Of a stretch of 64,000 nucleotides of DNA, positions 28,896 to 62,934 are shown one piece after another. Source of the DNA: Lophium mytilinum (lineage: Eukaryota); contig MU004190.1 of assembly GCA_010093605.1 (NCBI GenBank), forward strand, positions 1,571,599 through 1,635,598, given 5' to 3'. The notes beneath the pieces are model-generated. The model was not told the origin of the DNA. It saw only the letters and a list, made by a program, of their open reading frames with translations, and searched no databases. Position numbers and translations under genes: made by a program. Position 1 is the stretch's first letter. The number at the start of each line of letters is the position of its first letter.

Positions 28896-28924
28896 CACGT
28901 GCGCAAATTTTAAGGGTATATATA
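28896..28924 (+). promoter_or_regulatory. CACGTG plus TATA box upstream of ncRNA copy A
   Basis: cacgtg at 28896-28901 and tatatata at 28917-28924, about 31 nt before the start of the terminal stem; equivalent elements precede copies B and C. Confidence 0.6.
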
Positions 28925-28947: not shown

Positions 28948-29147
28948 AAAGAAACTCGACTCACAGTCCTGTGCCGGGCGATGACATAGCACACTCACTC
29001 AGTGTGTTAGAGCTCACGCTACTCTAAACCGCACATCCAAGGACATCGTGCCGGGCGCTGACATAGCACACCCAATCATCGCAATGGCGCGGTGTGTTAG
29101 AGCTCACGCTATTCCAAACCGCACAGAGACGAGTTTCTCTTTTTTTT
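28948..29147 (+). ncRNA. Candidate Pol III structured ncRNA, copy A (terminal stem plus two conserved bulged hairpins, 28971-29034 and 29048-29124)
   Basis: Motif gtgccgggcg(a/c)tgacatagcacac-loop-gtgtgttagagctcacgcta(c/t)tc(t/c)aaaccgcac occurs twice; 5' agaaactcgactc pairs with 3' gagacgagtttct; T8 at 29140-29147. Confidence 0.75.
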
Positions 29148-29175: not shown

Positions 29176-29186
29176 GGTTCGACTCG
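29176..29186 (+). promoter_or_regulatory. Pol III B-box downstream of ncRNA copy A
   Basis: GGTTCGACTCG about 29 nt after the T-run, with no tRNA cloverleaf around it. Confidence 0.7.
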
Positions 29187-30685: not shown

Positions 30686-30910
30686 GTTGTCGAAGGTGAG
30701 GCAAAAAAGATCGGTGAAGAGGAGAGGGTTGGTGGAGTTGGGTCGATGAAGCCTTCAGAGTCTCAATAAGTCAACAGGCCGGACAAAAGTATTCCCTTTT
30801 TGAAGGTCACGTGGATCCCACTACAGTACCAAGCTAAGGTAGAGTAGCACACTCGTTGCGACTGCTTAGGGTACCCCAATAGCTTTTGAAACTATGAATA
30901 CGAGGTACAG

Positions 30911-31450
30911 GTCAAGGAAATGGATATTAGGCCGCCTTTTGGTCAACTTAAAACCTGCCCGTTGAGCCCCTCCTTACAGTGGCATAGAGCATGCAAGAAT
31001 AGACCCTAAAAAGTGCTATATTGGTGTTGTGTTCTTACAAGACCTAGATTTATAGTATTGGTCAACGAAATGAATATTAGGCCGCCTTTTAGTTAACTGA
31101 AAACCTGCCCGTTGAGCTCCTCTTCACAGTGGCATGGAACAAGCAAGAATAGACCCTGAAAAGTACTATGTTAGTGTTGTATTCTTACGAGACCTAGATT
31201 TATGGTATTGGTCAACGAAATAAATATTAGGCCGCCTTTTGGTCAACTAGAAACCTGCCCGTTAAGCCCCTCTTTACAGTGGCATGGAGCAAGCAAGAAT
31301 AGACCTTGAAAAGTGCTATATTGATGTAGTGTTTTTAGGGGACCTAGATTTATAGTAAAGGTCAATGTAATGGAGATGAAGCTACCTTTTAGCGAGGGTA
31401 TCACCTGCTACCTGAGACACCCCTTACAGTCGTGTCGAGAGGGCAAGAAT
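30911..31450. repeat. 150-bp tandem repeat, about 3.6 copies, inside a MITE copy (~30824-31503)
   Basis: gtcaa starts at 30911, 31061, 31211 and 31361, an exact 150-bp period; the units contain the MITE internal motif ttacagtggc...gcaagaata. Confidence 0.9.
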
Positions 31451-33309: not shown

Positions 33310-34236
33310 CTATTCTTCATCTTCTTCGGCCTCCTCTTCTAGCCTCCTCCTCTCCCGCCTGCTCCGCCTCTCCTCCTTGTCCCTCAGCGCCTTAACCTCC
33401 TCCTCCAACGCCTCAACCTTCTTCCCCAGCTTCCGGTTCTTTTTCTCGACTATATCGAGAATCTTCCCCATCTTGTACATCTCGTCTATGCAGAATTACT
33501 CGTTAGCATGTGTCATCTCTGTACAGTGAAAGGCCACAAGTCTGGCCACTGGTACGCCACTGCTTGGGGTACCCCCATAGGGGTTTGAAGACTCTAGGGC
33601 GATGTCAAGATTCAGGCAGTGCAGATTGGACTGCCTCTTGACTATTCGCCCGTCCAGCAGTCAGGCTACCCCCAACAGTGGTGTTGAGTGGGCAAGAGCT
33701 AAGTCCGTGTGCCCAGACTTGTGGCCTAGGGTTGTACTGGTAGGAAAACAAGGGAGGGACAAGACTTACACTGGAGGTTTTCCAACTCCAGCCTCGTCTC
33801 CACCGTCTCTACGACCCCCTCCATCTCTATGTCTTCGTCGTCATCGTCGGCTATAAACTTACATTAGTGCACTATCCTACTAGCCAACGTACTGACATGT
33901 GCGTAAAGCTACCGGATCTCGAAAGACCTCAATGAGCACACAGATCACAAGGAGTGCACTTACGAACGGCAGGCGGGGGGGACTCCCGCGTCTCCTCCTC
34001 CTCCTCCTCCGGCTTCTTCTTGGTCTTCTTCTCCTTCTTCCGGGGAGCGGCGCGGGGCTTGGGGAGGCGGCGGGGGCGGGCTTGGCGGCCGGCGTTGGCG
34101 CGGGTTTGCTAGAAAGAATTAGCATTGCGTGAAACTCTAGACGATCAGGGGTTCTAAGCTGGATGATATAGAGGCAGGTGAAAGTACAAAAGGAAATTAC
34201 AAGATAACTTACGGAGCGGGTCTGCATGGTGGCCAT
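33310..34236 (-). CDS. Small orphan four-exon protein (basic N-terminus, acidic middle, coiled-coil C-terminus); paralog of 56021-56953
   Basis: MATMQTRS|QTRANAGRQARPRRLPKPRAAP...|...|YEMYKMGK...KKVEALEEEVKALRDKEE; introns of phase 0,1,1 keep the frame. Confidence 0.7.
33524..33734. mobile_element. MITE copy inside intron 3 of the 33310-34236 gene
   Basis: TA|CAGTgaaaggccacaagtctggccac ... gtgcccagacttgtggcctagggttg|TA. Confidence 0.8.
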
Positions 34237-34571
34237 CTGGAGGCTCGTCCAGACGCTGTGTGATGATGATGTGACTAGGAAAGAAAAAAAAGGGAATTGA
34301 GGGAACCTTTATACGACAGCTCATAGCACTAAACTTCACCCCACTAGCGTGGTACTACATTTGGTGAAGGCTGCGGGGAAGTGAAGTTTGGGATGCGGCA
34401 CCCATGGTGAAGTTAGAGATACTCGCCAGCCTGGAATCGATAGATTCAAGGTATAATGTGTGGGTAGATTGATCCCAACTACCTAGTACAGTACAGTTAA
34501 TACATGGACAGGCCATAATTCTAGGCACGTGAGCAGTAGATGAGATAGAGATCACGAAAACGGGAGAGGAA

Positions 34572-35477: not shown

Positions 35478-35880
35478 GTCTTGCTCATTCAACACCACTG
35501 CAAGGGGTAGCCTGGCTCTTAAGTAGCCAACCAGTCAAAAGACAGCCTGATTTATACTCTTTGAAACTTAGTATAGCTCTTAGATCTTCAAGAACTCATA
35601 GCGTACTCCAAGCAGTGGCGAACTAGTATGCCTAGGTTTCTGACCTGTCAATGACGATCAGACGAGAAGTCTAGGCACCCGTATCTAGTATTGATTGCCT
35701 CTAGTGTTGCTCACTTAACGCCACTGTGAAGGGTAGCCTGGCTGCTAAGCAGTCGTGCAGTCAAGACGCAGCCTAATTCGCACTGCTTGAAACTAGCACC
35801 GCCCTTGATCTTCGAGACCCTATGAGGGTATTCCAAGCAGTTGCGAACCATTGTGAAAAGGCTTATGCCTTGCAGTAGTG
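35478..35880. mobile_element. Two tandem decayed MITE copies (reverse orientation)
   Basis: ttgctca...ccactg...gggtagcctggct...gtcaa...ccaagcagt-gcgaac occurs twice. Confidence 0.7.
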
Positions 35881-50839: not shown

Positions 50840-51060
50840 CTGGTCTGGGCGTACCGACTTACTACCTTTCCGCCCTAAGTTTGCTCAATTGATACCACTG
50901 TGAGGAGTAACCCGGCTAGCTCGTAGATAATGATTCAAGTAGTAGTCCGACTTGCACTGCTTGGACCTTGACATCCCACCCAAATGAGTAAAAGCTTGCG
51001 GGGTACCCTAAGCAGTGGTTTTCTAAACGGGTGTGTACAGCCTTCTAGCTTGTCAGTTTA
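50840..51060. mobile_element. Decayed MITE copy
   Basis: gtctgggcgtac, ttgctcaattgataccactgtgaggagtaacc, gggtaccctaagcagtgg. Confidence 0.6.
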
Positions 51061-52209
51061 CTTTGGTTGCTTGCTTGATCGCGATAGCTGAAAAACTTTT
51101 GTCACACATAGTTGTAGAAGCTGCAGAGAGAAGGGGTTATAATGCGGAGGCAGGGAGGTCATGGTTGGCTCGCTACCCCCGGGGACCCATGGGGCGCCTT
51201 GCTATTCCAAGTCTGGGCCAAAACCCTATCTTCACGTCCCAGCATCACCCATCGCCTGCGTTCAACAACGACGGCGTGTCCAAGCAAGGAGAGTCAAAAC
51301 TGATGATATTGTACACTGTGGTCCTAATCTGACATCTTTGTCTTAGAAAGTGGCCGGAGTCGAGGTTACTTCAGGGTATTCGAGAGCCGCAACATGAAGA
51401 AAAACAGCTTCAGCTACTCCTGCCTGCGCTGTGGTAATGACTTCACGTTAGGCTATCCAGAGGTCCAAGTCATACTACTCAGCTTCTTCGACCTATAGTT
51501 GAGAATTATGACACCTCCAGCCGCTCCCGCCAGTGCTGAGATAATTGAGTTACGGTCGGTCGATGGCAAAGTCACGGTCTTCGGACTTTTGTATCTGTAA
51601 TTGAAAAGAAGAACGGCTTAGACCGCTCCTCCCAGCGTTCTGGTGATGATTACATGGTATGCTGATGTGCAAATCAACAAAGTACTCCATCTTCGCGGTC
51701 AATATGTCTAATCATCAATCCCCACCTCGCTTCGCAGCACTGGGAGGAGTACCCTAGCTAGGATTTGTCTATTAAGTCGAAAGATGGCTCGTTTTCCATT
51801 GCTTGGGGTTTTTCATCGTACCTGGAGTTTCCAAAAGCCTATGCTCAGGCTGCTCTTTGCAGTCTGGATGCCGCTGTTAGGAGTGCGCCAGCTCGAGAAT
51901 TATAGCCACATTATGCATCAAATCTTAAAGCATTAGATCTCAAAGAAAACATACGTGAAGGGCTTGGTCGCGATAAGAGCATTCAAGGTCCTAAATGCCG
52001 CTTGCTGAGGCAGCCATGCGAGCTGTTTATCATCCGGGGAATCGCCGCATGAGCTTGACAGATGAAGGTTGTATTACTATTTGGCTGTGGGCACACATGA
52101 CGTGATGTGCGCATCTCTGATCGGGCGGGCTCGGCACGTGCGTTAAGTAAAGCGCAGGTGCGCAACCGTTTTTTGAGGTACATATTTTGAAATATTCTAG
52201 AGGTATATC

Positions 52210-52416
52210 AAAAGTTGCGAACCGTGTTCTGTGCCGGGCGATGACATAGCACACTCAAGCAGTGTGTTAAAGCTCACGCTACTCCAAACCGCACATCCAA
52301 GGGCATTGCAGTACCGGGCGCTGACACAGCACACTCAATCATAGCTTGCCACGGCTCAGTGTGTTGAAGCTCACGCTACTCCAAACCGTACAACGCTTAA
52401 GGCGACCAACTTTTTT
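52210..52416 (+). ncRNA. Candidate Pol III structured ncRNA, copy B (hairpins 52231-52294 and 52311-52391)
   Basis: Same motif twice; terminal stem aaaagttg/caactttt; T6 at 52411-52416; tacatatt at 52179. Confidence 0.75.
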
Positions 52417-52445: not shown

Positions 52446-52456
52446 GGTTCGAATCG
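52446..52456 (+). promoter_or_regulatory. Pol III B-box downstream of ncRNA copy B
   Basis: GGTTCGAATCG about 30 nt after the T-run. Confidence 0.7.
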
Positions 52457-54809: not shown

Positions 54810-57475
54810 GGTATATATGTATTGTCAGTCCCCAGTGTCTGAAGTGACGTAGCAGGGTATCAAGTTTGTCAAAATGATAGTCGTGTGCTTTATATGAATG
54901 GTTTAAAGCCCTTCAAACGGCGTCCAGACAGTAGCAGTTTACTTCGCTTCTGTCACGAATCAGTTCTATGTTGTGAGATAGCTATGTAAGTGTACATACT
55001 AAGCCGCGCTTTTACTATGTAACCCTGTACTCTGTACTTCAAAAGGAGCTTTAGCTCTTGATCTCTCATTTTGGAGAGAAGAAATCAGTTTGGAGGTCCT
55101 GTAGACGAGACGAAACTCATACACAACTCAACGTAAAAGTAGAGTTGCTAATGAGGCAGTGAGATAGATTGTACAGGATGGTTAGCTATGAACCAGAAAG
55201 CCATACTATGTAAGACCCACAGACACTTCAATCTATATATTGAAGTGTATGTGACGCACGATCCATAATTTTCACTTCTGCGCCAAGATCTCCGCCATTC
55301 TTGCAATGTTTTCGGCCATCGTGATCATTTCCCGTTCCGAGCAGGCCACCCTTGTCTCCAGATGTCCGACTTTTCCATTGGCCTGCGCAAGCCCTCCTTG
55401 GAGACTGTGAATGGTTCCATACGCTTCGCTTAATCTCTCCGCCGTCGCCTTCCCCTTGCGCTGCTCGGCAGCCTTTGAACTCTGAATACGCTTTATCTGA
55501 GTCCTCTGATAGCGTAAGTTGATCCACACGGCTTTAGCCTCGTGATCGTTTCTCACTAGATCAACTTACATTAGTATTTCGTATCACTAGTTTCAGCGTT
55601 GAACGCAGTTTGTACTGCCTCAATGCCTAAGGCCTCACTACGCGAGACGGAATAGAACGTCAGCTATGGAACTTACCGCGCGGAGAGATCCACGTGTGCC
55701 TCATCTGAATGGTTTGAGGTCCTTCAAACGGCGTCTGGACAGTAGCAGCATACTTCCCTTATATTATGAATGAGTTGTACTATGCGTTCTCTACGTAGCA
55801 CCTGTCCAAGAGCTATGTGCAACAGCTCTATAATCGCGATTGTTTGGGGAATCAATACAACTATGAAGGATCCAGGTTTTGACACTATTCCTGGCGCTTT
55901 ACAAAACTGAGACTTCCTTTTGGAAACATTAGGCTATCGTTTTTTGGGAACAGAAACACCGTATGAGGTGGCTTTGTAAGTATACTAGTTATCTCCGGTG
56001 TCACTCTCTATGCCTAATCTTTATTCTGCCTTCTCCCGCAGCAGCCTAACCTCTTCCTGGAGGGCTTGATTCTCCGCCTCTAATGCCGCAATTTTCAACT
56101 CCATTTTACTATACGCCTCACTATGCGCCTCATCCTTATCCTTGATCGTCTCACGTAGTCCGAGTATTTCCTCCTCCATCTCAGTCATTTCAACTACAAA
56201 CATCAAATATTAGCATTCGTACATCTAATTTCACATCCTAAGATGCCAGCTGCAAGACCTAGAGACTCCCTAAGATGTCAGAGTGTGCCCCAACATCGGA
56301 AATATTCGAGGTACACATCTTAATCTAGGAATTTTAGAGTCTAGAGCTAGGCAGGTTGGATTTGAAAGATAGGATAATAAGAAAACATACCAGAAAGAGA
56401 CTCCACGGTCGGCTCCGTCACCAGATCCTCCGGCATAACTAATCGCTCATCTTCACTGTCCGAGCGCTCACTACAGGCTACGAAAATCTATTAGTACGTT
56501 ACTTTGCTCCAAAAACGATATACTACCAAAAAAACCTTGATACAATAGTATCTAGACTCTCTTAAGTATGATTACAAGAACACTTACTAACGAAGAGGGA
56601 GGGTGACGCCTCCCGGTCTTTTTCCGGCTCCTCCTCCTCCGGCTCCTCCTCCTCCGGCTCCTCCTCCGGCTCCTCCTTCTTCTTCCCAGCCTTTGGGCGG
56701 GCGCGAGGGCGCAGCGCGGAGGTGCCAAGGGCAGCCTTGGGCTTTGGGAGGCGGCGGGGGCGGGGAGTTCGGCTTCCTCTTCCTCCTCCTCCTCCTCCTC
56801 CTCGTTTGGCCTATATGATAGTTAGCATTGCTCTCGACACTGGGGTAAAAACGTGAAATATCTTGATAGAGGAAGCAAAACATTGACCGAAAATATGGGC
56901 AATGTCGTAAAGCTTATGAAGGAATAAGAAGGATAACGTACAAATGTCACCATGTTTATGACTATTAAGAGGCTCGTCTTGCAGTCGCTGTGTGAGGCTA
57001 ATGCTACCTGGAGAAAAGAAAAAGGGAATTACTGGAACCTTTATACGGCACCCCAAAGCACTAATCTTCACTTCAATCACTATAGCACTAACCTTCACTT
57101 TAGTAGTATTGTGTCTAAGCTGCCGAAAGTGGAGGGAAATCGATGTTCATGATGCGGGCGGGATCCAAGGTGAAGATGGAAAGGTGAAGGTGAAAAGATA
57201 CCGGTGCTCGGCTTGTGACATGAAGTCGCGCAAAAGTTCCCTACCACCGCTATAATGATTCAATTGGCCAGTATATGCTAGGGAAGCGGCTTGTTTATTA
57301 AGATATGTGTATATTCGATCACCAGTGCCTGAAGTGGGGTGGCGCGGTATGAAGCTGTCAAAATGATAGTCGTGTGCCTGACGTGAATGGATGGTTTATT
57401 GCCCTTCAAACAACGTCGAGCTAGTGGCAGTAAACTGCACTCCTGTCGCGAATGACTTATACATAACATGTACGT
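54810..57475 (+). repeat. Three dispersed direct repeats (~54810-54985, ~55690-55790, ~57300-57475)
   Basis: Shared core cgtgtgc...tgaatgg...ccttcaaac..cgtc...agt.gcag...act; copies 1 and 3 also share ccagtg.ctgaagtg...tgtcaaaatgatagtcg. Confidence 0.8.
56021..56953 (-). CDS. Small orphan four-exon protein; paralog of 33310-34236
   Basis: MVTF|AKRGGGGGGRGSRTPRPRRLPKPKAA...|TCSERSDSEDE...|VEMTEMEEE...KIAALEAENQALQEEVRLLREKAE; intron phases 0,1,1. Confidence 0.7.
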
Positions 57476-58606: not shown

Positions 58607-58855
58607 CAGTGACGGTTGTTCGCCACTGCTTAGGGTTCCCCCTCAGGATTGCGGAGATCCAAAGGCGAAGTCGAGGTTCAAGTAGTGTAAATTAGACTAT
58701 CTTTTCTCTAATTGGCTGCTCGGCAGGCAGGCTACCCCCAACAGTAGTGAAAATGCGCTGCTTGAAACTCGACATTGGTCTTAGGCTTTTGATATCCTGT
58801 GAGAATATCCCAAGCAATGGTGGACGAGTCTACGCAGCCTTATGACCGCTCACTA
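58607..58855. mobile_element. Rearranged MITE (left arm followed by an inverted left arm)
   Basis: TA|CAGT...gccactgcttagggttcccc...caggctacccccaacagtagtg, then ctgcttgaaact...cccaagcaatgg...cttatgacc in the opposite orientation. Confidence 0.6.
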
Positions 58856-60314: not shown

Positions 60315-60325
60315 CGGTTCGAACC
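60315..60325 (-). promoter_or_regulatory. Pol III B-box downstream of ncRNA copy C
   Basis: GGTTCGAACCG on the minus strand, about 20-27 nt past the T-runs. Confidence 0.7.
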
Positions 60326-60344: not shown

Positions 60345-60559
60345 AAAAAACAAAAGAAATTGGTTACCAAGGTGCGGTTTGGAATAGCGTGAGCTCTAAC
60401 ACCCCGAGCACATTGCTATGATTGGGAGTGCTATGTCATCGCCCGGCACGGCGTCTAGGATCCTTTGTGATGTGCGGTTTGGTGTAGCGTGAGCTCTAAC
60501 CAACTGAGCAATTGCTGTAGTTGGCTATGTCAGCGCCCGGCACGGATCCCAATTTCTTT
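60345..60559 (-). ncRNA. Candidate Pol III structured ncRNA, copy C (hairpins 60472-60543 and 60372-60449)
   Basis: Reverse complement of the same motif twice; 11-bp terminal stem aaagaaattgg/ccaatttcttt; T4 and T6 runs; TATAAATA at 60582-60589; CACGTG at 60616-60621. Confidence 0.75.
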
Positions 60560-61420
60560 GGAACCTGCCAAAATATTTTGGTATTTATACGCCAAAAAGT
60601 CGCTTAGCTCACTTTCACGTGGCAGCCACCCGATATTTCTCCACCACCATCTTTCACCCGCAATCCTCCTTCATCTCCTTTCGACAGCTGCCTGACTAGC
60701 TAATGTAGACCTTGCCAGCGCTTTGTTACCACGCTTCTAACTCTCTCTGTTACTTGTCACTAACAACCAAGTCCTCACGTCTCCACACCCCAGACAGTCA
60801 ACACGTTACCTCATGACTCCTCTATTCGGGCGAGAGGGCTTTTCGCAGTCCTTACCTTTTGGCATTTACGGCAGTCGCCTTACAACCTGTGTGCCACAAG
60901 TGCCAAGTGCAACAGGGTCAAAGCCCGTCCTGACTCCTCTACAGCGAATCCCAATTCGGCGAATGGTTAGTTCCCGACCACGGACTCAATCTATCTACCA
61001 AGGACCTCCTATGGATCTTACTTTGCCTCCACATCACTGAACCTCGTGTCTGGGAATACACTGCCGCATGGTTGCGGTAGTTCTTGGTATTTGATTCGGT
61101 ATATTGAGGACGCAGAAATGGGAGGATGGGGATGCGCGGTCAACAAACGGAGGCGAGAAAGACGAGTGGGAATTGGAAGTTACTGAATATACCACCGTTC
61201 CTATCCTGTTCTTGCGACCTAGACACCACTGTAAGAGATATCCTAGCTACAACGTCTTCACTTAGTCAAAATGTAGTCTCATATCCACTTCGTCGAGTTT
61301 TCCATCTTATCTAGGGCCTTCGAAACCTATCGCATTAGCCTATGCAGTGGCAGAGAGTGCGCTATCTTAAGGCTTGGTAATATACATTCTCCACTACACC
61401 CATCTTTCGTCGTCCTTCAC

Positions 61421-62934
61421 TCACAAAACCCCCATCAATCCCGCCACCAACCCCACAGCACCCACGAGGCTCCAACCCACCTCCAAATGCCCCGCCACCC
61501 CCGTCCCCGTCGCACTCGGCGCCGCCGTCCCACTCGCGCTCCCAGTAACCGTCCCCGACGGCGTCGCCGTATTATTATTATTCCCACCCACCGTCAAATT
61601 CCCATTCGTCTCCTTCACCAACAACCCCTGCACCACCCCCAGCGCACTCAAGAGCTCTCCCAGCCCCCCTGAATCCCCGACGCTGCTACTCTCCTTATAC
61701 CAATGATCGCTACAAACCACGGAACTCCCATTGGACGCCTGATTGCTCGTCTCGCAATGCGCCGCCGCCGCTTTCGCGGACGTCTCGAGAAGACTCATAA
61801 GCTTATCCGCCGTGAACGGTGCGGCGAGGGTTGCGCGGGAGATGCTAGAGGCGAACCCGCCCTTGAACTCCAGCTGGTCGGTGTCGCACCGCGCGCTAGG
61901 CTCACAGGCCGGCTCGTTAAGAATACCCGGAGCGCTGGGTTGGGATGCGAAGCGGTCGGTGGCGTTGACGAAGCCGGAGACGCGGGCTTTCCACAGCGGG
62001 GATGCGTTGGTGAGGTTGTACATGACCGCCGAGCCGTAGAGATATGCGCCGAAGACATTGGTCCACTCAATGTGGTTGGTAGAGGAGCAGTTCTCCGTGG
62101 CGTCCGCGCCGTCGTAGACGTGGTAGTCGTCGGTCAGCAGGCCGGCGGACTGGGTCCAGTTGTAGGCTTTCTCGGCCCAGGTGGCGTAGGTGGCGTTGCC
62201 GGTGAACTGGGCGAGGCGGGCGGCGAGGAGGAAGAAGTTGCCGTTGGTGAGGGTGTTTTTGTAGTTGTAGCCGTTGTTGAAAGTGAAGATTTGCCAGCGG
62301 AGACCGCCGCCGCAGGTGGAGGTGTCCCAGCGGGCGGCCTGCAGGTTGAAGACGTTGATGGAGATGTTGAGCCATTGGGATGATGGATTAGGATTGGGGA
62401 AGTTCATCTCGGCGGCGGAGAGGGTGGCGAGCCCCCACGTGGACTGGTCATCGTTGCCCTGTAGTCATATTTAGTACTCGTGGGCTATATGACTGCAAGT
62501 CTTCGCAGTAAGATGAATTGGCATATACCAAAGACTTGGTCTGGTTGGGCGTCATGTAATCGTCGTTCGGCCCTCTTTGGAATTGGAGAGCTTGCCCTAT
62601 GAGGTCGCTGTACTGCTTGTCGGCAGTCAAGGTCTGGTACTGCACCATGGCGTCCCAGGCAGCTCCCGCCTCCCACCAGTAGTAGGGTTTACTGAACAGG
62701 CCGGGCGGGCCATTGTTAGACGTGGCCTCATTGTAGGTCTGAATTATGCCTCCGGCGAGAGTCTTGGCAACATCCTTGATGGAATCTGGGGATGTTAGAA
62801 ATGCGGGGGGGGCCGGTAAACTTGTCAAAAGGAAAAAAGAGTTTACCGGCACTGTCGGTTGAGAGGCTAATGGCATTTGCTGACAGAGCGAACGCCGAAA
62901 AAGCGAGTGGAAGGGATTGCGTAGAGAAATGCAT
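61421..62934 (-). CDS. GH76 Dfg5/Dcw1-family mannan endo-1,6-alpha-mannosidase, probably GPI-anchored (two introns)
   Basis: Signal peptide, PYYWWEAGAAW, GNDDQSTWGL, CGGGLRWQIFTFNNGYNYKN, VYDGA and a hydrophobic C-terminus. Confidence 0.92.

Follow-up and report, generated by a model that had tools for sequence, protein, structure and literature searches.

A candidate family of tandem-hairpin RNA genes with RNA polymerase III-type signals in a fungal genome

The products that RNA polymerase III (Pol III) makes in fungi are thought to be few and well known: tRNAs, 5S RNA, U6, the RNA of the signal recognition particle (SRP), RNase P RNA, and a few orphans. A described gene of this kind with an organization similar to that of the loci examined here is the yeast U6 gene SNR6, for which the text of PMC9136082 gives a TATA box at −30, a T7 element between the TATA box and the start, and, past the terminator, a box B that is extragenic and separated from box A by 202 bp. 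Here, we describe three loci, genes A, B, and C, in a 64-kb stretch of fungal DNA (contig MU004190.1, positions 1,571,599 to 1,635,598; hereafter, the window). The loci share a repeated pair of tandem hairpins with compensated helices, islands of conservation, and promoter- and terminator-like motifs, and they match no Rfam family. We consider it likely that the loci belong to a real family of structured RNA genes and, given such a family, very likely that its members are transcribed by Pol III. The two taken together, a family of Pol III-transcribed structured RNA genes, is the reading that we favor as fairly probable. It is a well-supported candidate for an undescribed RNA family; no described RNA family matches it.

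A preliminary description of this DNA reported a hairpin motif that occurs six times in the window, always in tandem pairs. This is borne out: the units start at positions 28971, 29048, 52231, and 52311 on the plus strand and at 60543 and 60449 on the minus strand, and the letters at 28948 to 29147 read as they had been given. The 5′ half of the motif, GTGCCGGGCGMTGACATAGCACAC, and the 3′ half, GTGTGTTAGAGCTCACGCTAYTCCAAACCGCAC, each have six matches in the window at up to 3 mismatches, and for each half none of 100 shuffles contains any match. As had been suggested, a covariance model of the hairpin unit was built from all six units, and it was used to search the window with filters off. The model recovers exactly those six units (84.8 to 102.6 bits); the runner-up has 11.5 bits (E value, 1.7). 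Each gene is predicted to encode an RNA with two hairpin units, a terminal stem (P1), and a second stem (P2), laid out as follows (lengths in nucleotides [nt]).

Gene A
28948 to 29147, plus strand: predicted RNA of ~200 nt, its start placed from the TATA spacing and P1 and its end at the T8 run
28896 to 28901, plus strand: CACGTG element, 16 nt upstream of the TATA box
28917 to 28924, plus strand: TATA box TATATATA, ~26 to 31 nt before the first P1 base
28950 to 28962, plus strand: 5′ strand of P1, which pairs with 29126 to 29138 (12 Watson-Crick pairs around one A/A mismatch)
28966 to 28970, plus strand: 5′ strand of P2 (GUCCU), which pairs with 29040 to 29044 (AGGAC) and encloses hairpin 1
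28971 to 29034, plus strand: hairpin unit 1, short form, 64 nt (84.8 bits)
29048 to 29124, plus strand: hairpin unit 2 (A2), long form with apical mini-stem, 77 nt (102.6 bits)
29140 to 29147, plus strand: T8 run, putative Pol III terminator
29176 to 29185, plus strand: B-box-like GGTTCGACTC, 28 nt past the T-run, at ~+227 from the putative start
Gene B
52210 to 52416, plus strand: predicted RNA of ~207 nt, paralogue of gene A
52135 to 52140, plus strand: CACGTG element
52179 to 52186, plus strand: TATA-like TACATATT, which aligns with the TATA boxes of A and C
52210 to 52219 with 52403 to 52414, plus strand: P1
52225 to 52230 with 52300 to 52305, plus strand: P2
52231 to 52294, plus strand: hairpin unit 1, short form (86.1 bits)
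52311 to 52391, plus strand: hairpin unit 2 (B2), long form with two compensatory pairs (94.7 bits)
52411 to 52416, plus strand: T6 run
52446 to 52455, plus strand: B-box-like GGTTCGAATC, 29 nt past the T-run, at ~+236 from the putative start
Gene C
60559 to 60345, minus strand: predicted RNA of ~215 nt
60616 to 60621, minus strand: CACGTG element
60582 to 60589, minus strand: TATA box TATAAATA
60559 to 60549 with 60363 to 60353, minus strand: P1
60548 to 60544 with 60463 to 60459, minus strand: P2
60543 to 60472, minus strand: hairpin unit 1 (C1), long form with upper stem CCAAC/GUUGG (85.9 bits)
60449 to 60372, minus strand: hairpin unit 2 (C2), long form (99.6 bits)
Ending at 60345, minus strand: T4-G-T6 run
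60316 to 60325, minus strand: B-box-like GGTTCGAACC, 19 nt past the T-run, at ~+234 from the putative start

Folded alone, all six units adopt the same minimum-energy fold that the preliminary description had given, with an extra C-G pair in the CA × GAGC loop in five of them. The base of the unit is a stem of GUG/CAC and CGG/CCG with one bulged C. Above it follow a 9-nt 3′ bulge (UAYWCYAAA), GCG/CGC, a one-base bulge (A or C), and UGA/UCA, and the top consists of a small asymmetric CA × RAGC loop under an 8-bp upper stem with an invariant G-U pair and a freely varying tip. Four of the units have a longer tip, with an internal loop and a mini-stem of 3 to 4 bp (CGC/GCG in A2; AGC/GCU or AGCA/UGCU in the other three). 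The claim that the unpaired bases are as conserved as the stems nearly holds, the exceptions being column 11 (A/C), column 58 (G/A), and three positions of the 9-nt bulge. The G-U wobble reported in the upper stem is found as G19-U55 in every unit, and more G-U pairs occur in C2 and, twice, in P2 of gene B.

In a model-based alignment of the six units, standard pairs occupy all 116 scored cells, and both sides change in 3 pairs, a number reached by 4 of 500 shuffles. Two of these compensated pairs are in B2, where A-U replaces G-C at the base and C-G replaces U-A at the upper stem's foot, and one is in C2 (A-U to U-G). In all slid registers, pairing falls to 20 to 51%, and no compensated pairs are left. 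Unit C1 is misaligned by the unit model, and its upper stem was read directly instead: it is CCAAC/GUUGG in place of CACAC/GUGUG, which adds 2 further compensated pairs, for a total of five.

The paired ends reported for gene A, agaaactcgactc and gagacgagtttct, which run into the T8 run, are present, and P1 recurs in every gene, where unrelated sequences form 12 (A), 10 (B), and 11 (C) Watson-Crick pairs. In a 3 × 3 matrix of leader-trailer duplex energies, the cognate combination is best in all three rows and in two of the three columns. The stem P2 is new relative to the preliminary description and is predicted to enclose hairpin 1 by joining the end of the leader to the linker. It has 5, 6, and 5 pairs in A, B, and C (GUCCU/AGGAC; UGUUCU/AGGGCA, with its two G-U pairs; and GAUCC/GGAUC) and is also found in the centroid fold of gene A. 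Because P2 surrounds hairpin 1, the two hairpins are not equivalent: hairpin 1 stands on P2 with a bulge of 5 to 7 nt (AUCCA or AUCACAA), and hairpin 2 stands directly in the junction.

The fold of gene A is more stable than that of shuffled sequences, with a z-score of −4.44 on the gene strand (0 of 200 shuffles) and −2.93 on the opposite strand (1 of 200). Our choice of strand is based on the gene signals described below and on the G-U pairs, each of which the other strand would turn into an A-C mismatch. A structured RNA gene of ~200 nt on the strand originally proposed is thus supported by the compensated helices and by conservation that is confined to the modules and to the promoter- and terminator-like elements.

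As a separate observation, YCCAA recurs in single-stranded parts of the predicted RNAs, namely, in the 9-nt bulges, in the bulge of the linker, and in the internal loop of the long units. Counted by eye, there are 3 to 6 occurrences of CCAA per RNA gene versus ~0.8 expected for a 4-mer in 200 nt. The recurrent YCCAA could be a shared recognition motif.

Conservation among the three loci is distributed in islands. In pairwise comparisons, the lower halves of the hairpins are 85 to 100% identical in 10 of 12 figures, and the other two figures (68%) arise from gaps in C1. Identity is 52 to 72% in the segment from the TATA box to the start and 65 to 76% in the B-box region, and it is 38 to 50% in the leader, 19 to 35% in the trailer, 32 to 69% in the linker, and 31 to 45% in the distal flanks. 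Such a pattern is what would be expected if an RNA module and promoter elements were under selection. Segmental duplication is rejected as the sole source of the similarity between A and B, since only scattered short matches are found outside the genes.

We ranked three rival explanations: first a dicistronic precursor, then a DNA-level element, and last a ribozyme or aptamer. Under the first of them, a dicistronic Pol III transcript would be cut in the linker and the trailer, and the hairpin RNAs of 64 to 81 nt, or smaller products, would be the active molecules. The units are indeed self-contained and fold alone, the linker between them is poorly conserved (32 to 69%), and the unit lengths are tRNA-like; Pol III-transcribed precursors of small RNAs have been reported in Neurospora. 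However, P1 and P2 are kept by compensation in the three genes, which argues that the entire molecule is important, if only for its processing or stability. Moreover, short stems with large conserved bulges are poor Dicer substrates, and conserved unpaired bases are unexpected in a mere precursor of small RNAs. We consider a precursor unlikely.

The three genes share a set of signals in similar positions. The TATA-like elements TATATATA, TACATATT, and TATAAATA lie 26 to 31 nt before the first P1 base in all three genes, from which the start is placed, and a conserved AT-rich stretch separates the TATA box from the putative start in each gene. Directly 3′ of P1, all three genes have a T-run (T8, T6, and T4-G-T6 in A, B, and C). 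GGTTCGANYC, which is the core of the B box of tRNA genes, matches 6 times in the window, at 5 sites (1.04 matches expected), and three of the five sites lie on the gene strand behind the three T-runs, at 28, 29, and 19 nt. The last two positions (CC) of the B-box consensus GGTTCGANTCC read TC/CG, TC/CG, and CC/CG in the three genes. Despite the unequal lengths of the RNAs, the distances from the putative start to the B box are 227, 236, and 234 nt in A, B, and C. Given the TATA box, the T-run, the downstream B box, and the constant distance from start to B box, we propose that these genes are transcribed by Pol III. The Pol III-type signals (TATA box, downstream B box, and constant spacing) are an addition to the earlier account of the locus. 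A CACGTG element lies 16 to 38 nt upstream of the TATA-like element in all three genes; with 21 CACGTG sites in the window, this placement is unlikely to have arisen by chance three times, and the upstream element may be a regulatory site. Around the B box, the sequence resembles the 3′ half of a decayed tRNA that lacks a 5′ partner, and ARAGORN finds no tRNAs in the 64-kb window.

This arrangement resembles that of yeast SNR6, in which a TATA box at about −30 is followed by a T-rich stretch that precedes the start, a T-run serves as terminator, and the B box lies outside the gene, beyond the terminator, at a distance roughly the size of a nucleosome. In contrast to SNR6, where the B box lies farther away, the B box here is ~20 to 30 nt past the putative terminator, and the genes have a candidate A box that is only weakly recognizable and an upstream CACGTG. 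The likeness is limited to gene organization: the RNA has no ACAGAGA/AGC core, and there is no Rfam hit to U6.

Several points weigh against the favored reading, that of Pol III-transcribed structured RNA genes. The candidate A box in hairpin 1, TAGCACACTCA, is weak, agreeing by eye with 6 of the 9 specified positions of the consensus TRGCNNAGTGG, and CACGTG is usually tied to regulators of Pol II. No RNA run is listed among the sequencing runs that contain the stretch, and we infer transcription, the polymerase, and the ends of the RNA from the DNA sequence. Helix 2 of the unit (GCG/CGC and UGA/UCA) is invariant in all units and, because it never varies, is neither supported nor contradicted by covariation. 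All of the evidence comes from six related units in one genome, there are few compensatory cells, and sequences that are related can outscore shuffles in a compensation test even when no structure exists. Part of the hairpin identity could come from gene conversion of short tracts. Bivalent binding, the mode of action considered below, is speculative, being an argument from anatomy only. Finally, the antisense folds are lower in absolute energy in all three genes (−75.6, −67.9, and −74.4 kcal/mol versus −65.1, −53.2, and −64.5 kcal/mol), so thermodynamics alone does not choose the strand.

The last point also speaks for the second rival, an element that acts as DNA: a boundary bound by TFIIIC, a decayed tRNA-linked repeat, or a nonautonomous mobile element with DNA hairpins. 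In absolute energy, the antisense strand is at least as stable, and palindromic DNA keeps compensatory changes too. There are multiple, dispersed copies, each with a B-box-like motif behind it that would be expected to bind TFIIIC, and the downstream segment is like a decayed tRNA 3′ half. On the other hand, no target-site duplications, terminal inverted repeats, or A-tails are seen. The preliminary description had named flanking duplications and transposon ends as signs of a DNA-level repeat, and neither was found at the loci; the longest direct word common to the flanks is 8 nt in A, and there is none of at least 8 nt in B or C. The positions of the TATA box and the T-run are fixed relative to the helices, P1 pairs exactly the putative ends of the RNA, the invariant G-U pairs are strand specific, and conservation peaks in the unpaired bases of the fold of one strand. 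We regard a DNA-level element as improbable.

The loci were compared with known RNA families. As regards Rfam, none of 4,227 families reaches its gathering score in the window, in line with the preliminary description, which could not match the motif to a number of known RNA classes. With E values up to 10, the three loci yield 3, 0, and 3 hits, all of them weak (up to 18.8 bits), far below gathering, and at chance level: DUF2815 (18.8 bits), RT-17, ST7-OT4_2, RUF6-5, P27, and DAOA-AS1_2. No ribozyme or riboswitch family is among them, which bears on the third rival, in which each unit would be a self-cleaving ribozyme or an aptamer, with the invariant internal loops and the 9-nt bulge as its active site or binding pocket and with cooperativity between the tandem units. 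Near-invariant unpaired nucleotides under a variable tip are a typical pattern of such RNAs, and the tandem units recall tandem aptamers. However, no candidate cleavage site or pseudoknot can be derived from the units, and self-cleavage would destroy the P1-closed molecule that is kept by compensation. A catalytic or ligand-sensing RNA is, in our judgment, very unlikely.

We give an equally small chance to the possibility that these RNAs are divergent members of a described family missed by Rfam, such as an H/ACA-like, SRP-Alu-like, or Y-like RNA. Two hairpins with large internal loops are found in H/ACA RNAs, and in gene C hairpin 1 is followed by ACAUCA, which fits the H box (ANANNA). The corresponding hinge in A and B, ACAUCC, fails that consensus, and no ACA lies 3 nt from the 3′ end, which is paired in P1 and followed by U-runs. 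In addition, the two "pockets" are identical and can pair internally. A box H/ACA small nucleolar RNA (snoRNA) is rejected on these grounds. As for SRP RNA and Alu, the octamer GCCGGGCG equals the first bases of human 7SL/Alu and is the only likeness; the UGUAAU-type motif, which in that family lies between helices 3 and 4, is absent from the units, and the three loci have no SRP hit at E values up to 10. Closed ends and a U-tail resemble those of Y RNAs, but the sequence of the terminal stem differs completely between the genes, unlike that of the Ro-binding stem, and there is no Y_RNA hit. At the same threshold, no model for 7SK or snoRNAs scores either, and the hits to other families are the chance-level ones given above.

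Other candidates were also dropped. For a box C/D snoRNA, in which a C box (RUGAUGA) and a D box (CUGA) meet as a kink-turn close to the termini, the units offer only GAUGA or CUGA, which are alternatives at one position (column 11, A/C) and have no partner box, and the opposite strand has UCACGC where a kink-turn needs GA beside the stem. A selenocysteine insertion sequence or kink-turn is rejected since the upper stem is disrupted in the GA/GA register and two of the six units have A in column 58. A tRNA or a tRNA-derived short interspersed element does not fit the absence of tRNAs in the window, a B box outside the transcript, no A-tail, and no flanking direct repeat of at least 9 nt. The iron-responsive element, the bulge-helix-bulge, the hammerhead and hairpin ribozyme cores, and the U1A site were dropped on reading of the sequence.

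A literature text search for the motif strings found no paper, and keyword searches likewise returned nothing relevant. We found no such motif in two screens for fungal structures, Li and Breaker 2017 and Gao et al. 2021 (NAR 49:6128). The structures described in the latter are mostly single copy, and an overlap with one of them, "intergenic structure 2," is possible.

The window is fungal and encodes the TORC1 subunit TCO89, a Ran-binding protein, a 2EXR/DUF7730 protein, a DEAD-box helicase, Yju2, and a glycoside hydrolase of family 76 (GH76). The protein of one of its open reading frames (ORFs) is 100% identical to a Lophium mytilinum protein, and the next relatives are from other Dothideomycetes, the nearest named ones being proteins of Mytilinidion resinicola, Glonium stellatum, and Lepidopterella palustris. 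In DNA contigs of this likely source, we found unit-like pieces with trailers that match none of those of A, B, and C, one of which ends in T7. In one divergent paralogue in the contigs, the 3′ basal strand of both units differs, other sequence standing in place of the conserved bulge and CCG. Neither trailer of the extra paralogues was found in the 64-kb window. With at least two further paralogues beyond A, B, and C, the family has at least five genes. The divergent paralogue, which is represented by one 211-nt contig at a depth of 4.5 in a run only guessed to be RNA, is not counted as expression. Its presence also in a run of another study suggests a subfamily and not decay, and its different 3′ basal strand hints at subfamilies with different partners.

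Wider scans with the pattern returned nothing comparable. A metagenome scan gave 4 loci, all in bacterial-looking coding DNA that shares only the pattern; scans of prokaryote genomes gave 0 and then 5 loci, all from high-G+C bacteria; and a scan of viral contigs gave none. With the unit model, none of the 9 metagenome and prokaryote loci exceeds 16 bits, versus 85 to 103 bits for the real units. These metagenome, prokaryote, and viral collections hold no fungal genomes and are silent on conservation in fungi.

The window has several other features outside the three genes. A tandem repeat at 30910 to 31372 (period of 150 nt, 3.1 copies, 86% matches) lies in an ORF-poor stretch of lower G+C content. 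A dispersed family of ~130-nt repeats with 69 to 73% identity has copies at 33552 to 33683 and 58618 to 58749 and, in reverse, at 35723 to 35848, 35493 to 35568, and 50935 to 51018. An 87-nt element, which starts with the TATA-like TTTATATGAATGG, is present in three copies of 70 to 80% identity at 54882 to 54968, 55693 to 55779, and 57375 to 57461 (also 54867 to 54901 and 57356 to 57390), inside a gene-poor stretch of 46 to 48% G+C. Two ~100-nt segments, 34240 to 34339 and 56969 to 57071, are 79% identical with an A-rich core and may be a shared promoter or untranslated region of paralogous genes. The GH76 gene on the minus strand is split in two ORFs, 61421 to 62407 and 62448 to 62876, which cover positions 1 to 86 and 102 to 362 of the Pfam profile and are probably separated by an intron.

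Returning to Pol III-transcribed structured RNA genes as the favored reading, we propose the following model. The three paralogous genes would be transcribed by Pol III from an SNR6-like promoter into RNAs of 200 to 215 nt that carry a 3′ oligo-U tail and have their 5′ and 3′ ends paired in P1. Within the RNA, P2 would enclose hairpin 1, hairpin 2 would follow directly, and each hairpin would present the same conserved lower module under an 8-bp stem with a variable tip. The product would be a stable RNA of a small ribonucleoprotein (RNP), in which each module would be occupied either by its own copy of a common protein or by one of the subunits of a dimer, while P1 and the U-tail would protect the ends. 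Because the RNA would combine two rigid asymmetric-loop modules under variable tips with protected ends, we favor a bivalent protein-binding scaffold or decoy among modes of action, as a tentative suggestion that is drawn from the anatomy of the molecule and may well prove wrong.

The fungal set would be enlarged, in the largest class of ascomycetes, by a multicopy and strongly structured Pol III RNA whose fold is new. It would also provide a new RNP for purification, with the duplicated module and its invariant unpaired bases serving as bait for the protein partner, and the compact U6-type cassette of promoter and terminator could be used for the expression of small RNAs in these fungi.

Among known systems, Plasmodium RUF6 and yeast RNA170 are orphan Pol III transcripts that, like the present genes, were first defined by gene signals, and RUF6 is also multicopy. 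In sequence they are unrelated to the RNAs described here; the sole RUF6-5 hit lies downstream of gene C and has 13.5 bits versus a gathering score of 70. Box H/ACA snoRNAs share the order of hairpin, hinge, and hairpin with a large internal loop in each hairpin, whereas the hairpins here are nearly identical, the ends are closed by P1, the signals are Pol III-like, and an H box is found in one of three genes. Y and vault RNAs come from small clustered sets of Pol III paralogues and have paired ends, an oligo-U tail, and internal loops presumably presented to proteins. In contrast to them, the RNA here is about twice as long, has two copies of one module, and matches no Rfam family; furthermore, the Ro60 site of Y RNAs is in their terminal stem, whereas P1 is not conserved in sequence. 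In 7SK and in the autoregulatory element of U1A, as in the present RNAs, an internal-loop motif is duplicated, there binding two copies of a protein, and 7SK, too, is made by Pol III and ends in a 3′ U-tail. Their sites are within one hairpin, whereas here there are two tandem hairpins, and there is no similarity in sequence or model; we know of no HEXIM-type partner in fungi. Quite possibly, although we would not call it probable, the Dothideomycetes have an undescribed class of abundant small Pol III RNAs. Their genes would form a small multigene family with promoters of the U6 type, and the two modules of each RNA would assemble a dimeric RNP. If so, this class would be a fungal counterpart of 7SK, Y, and vault RNAs in logic, not in ancestry.

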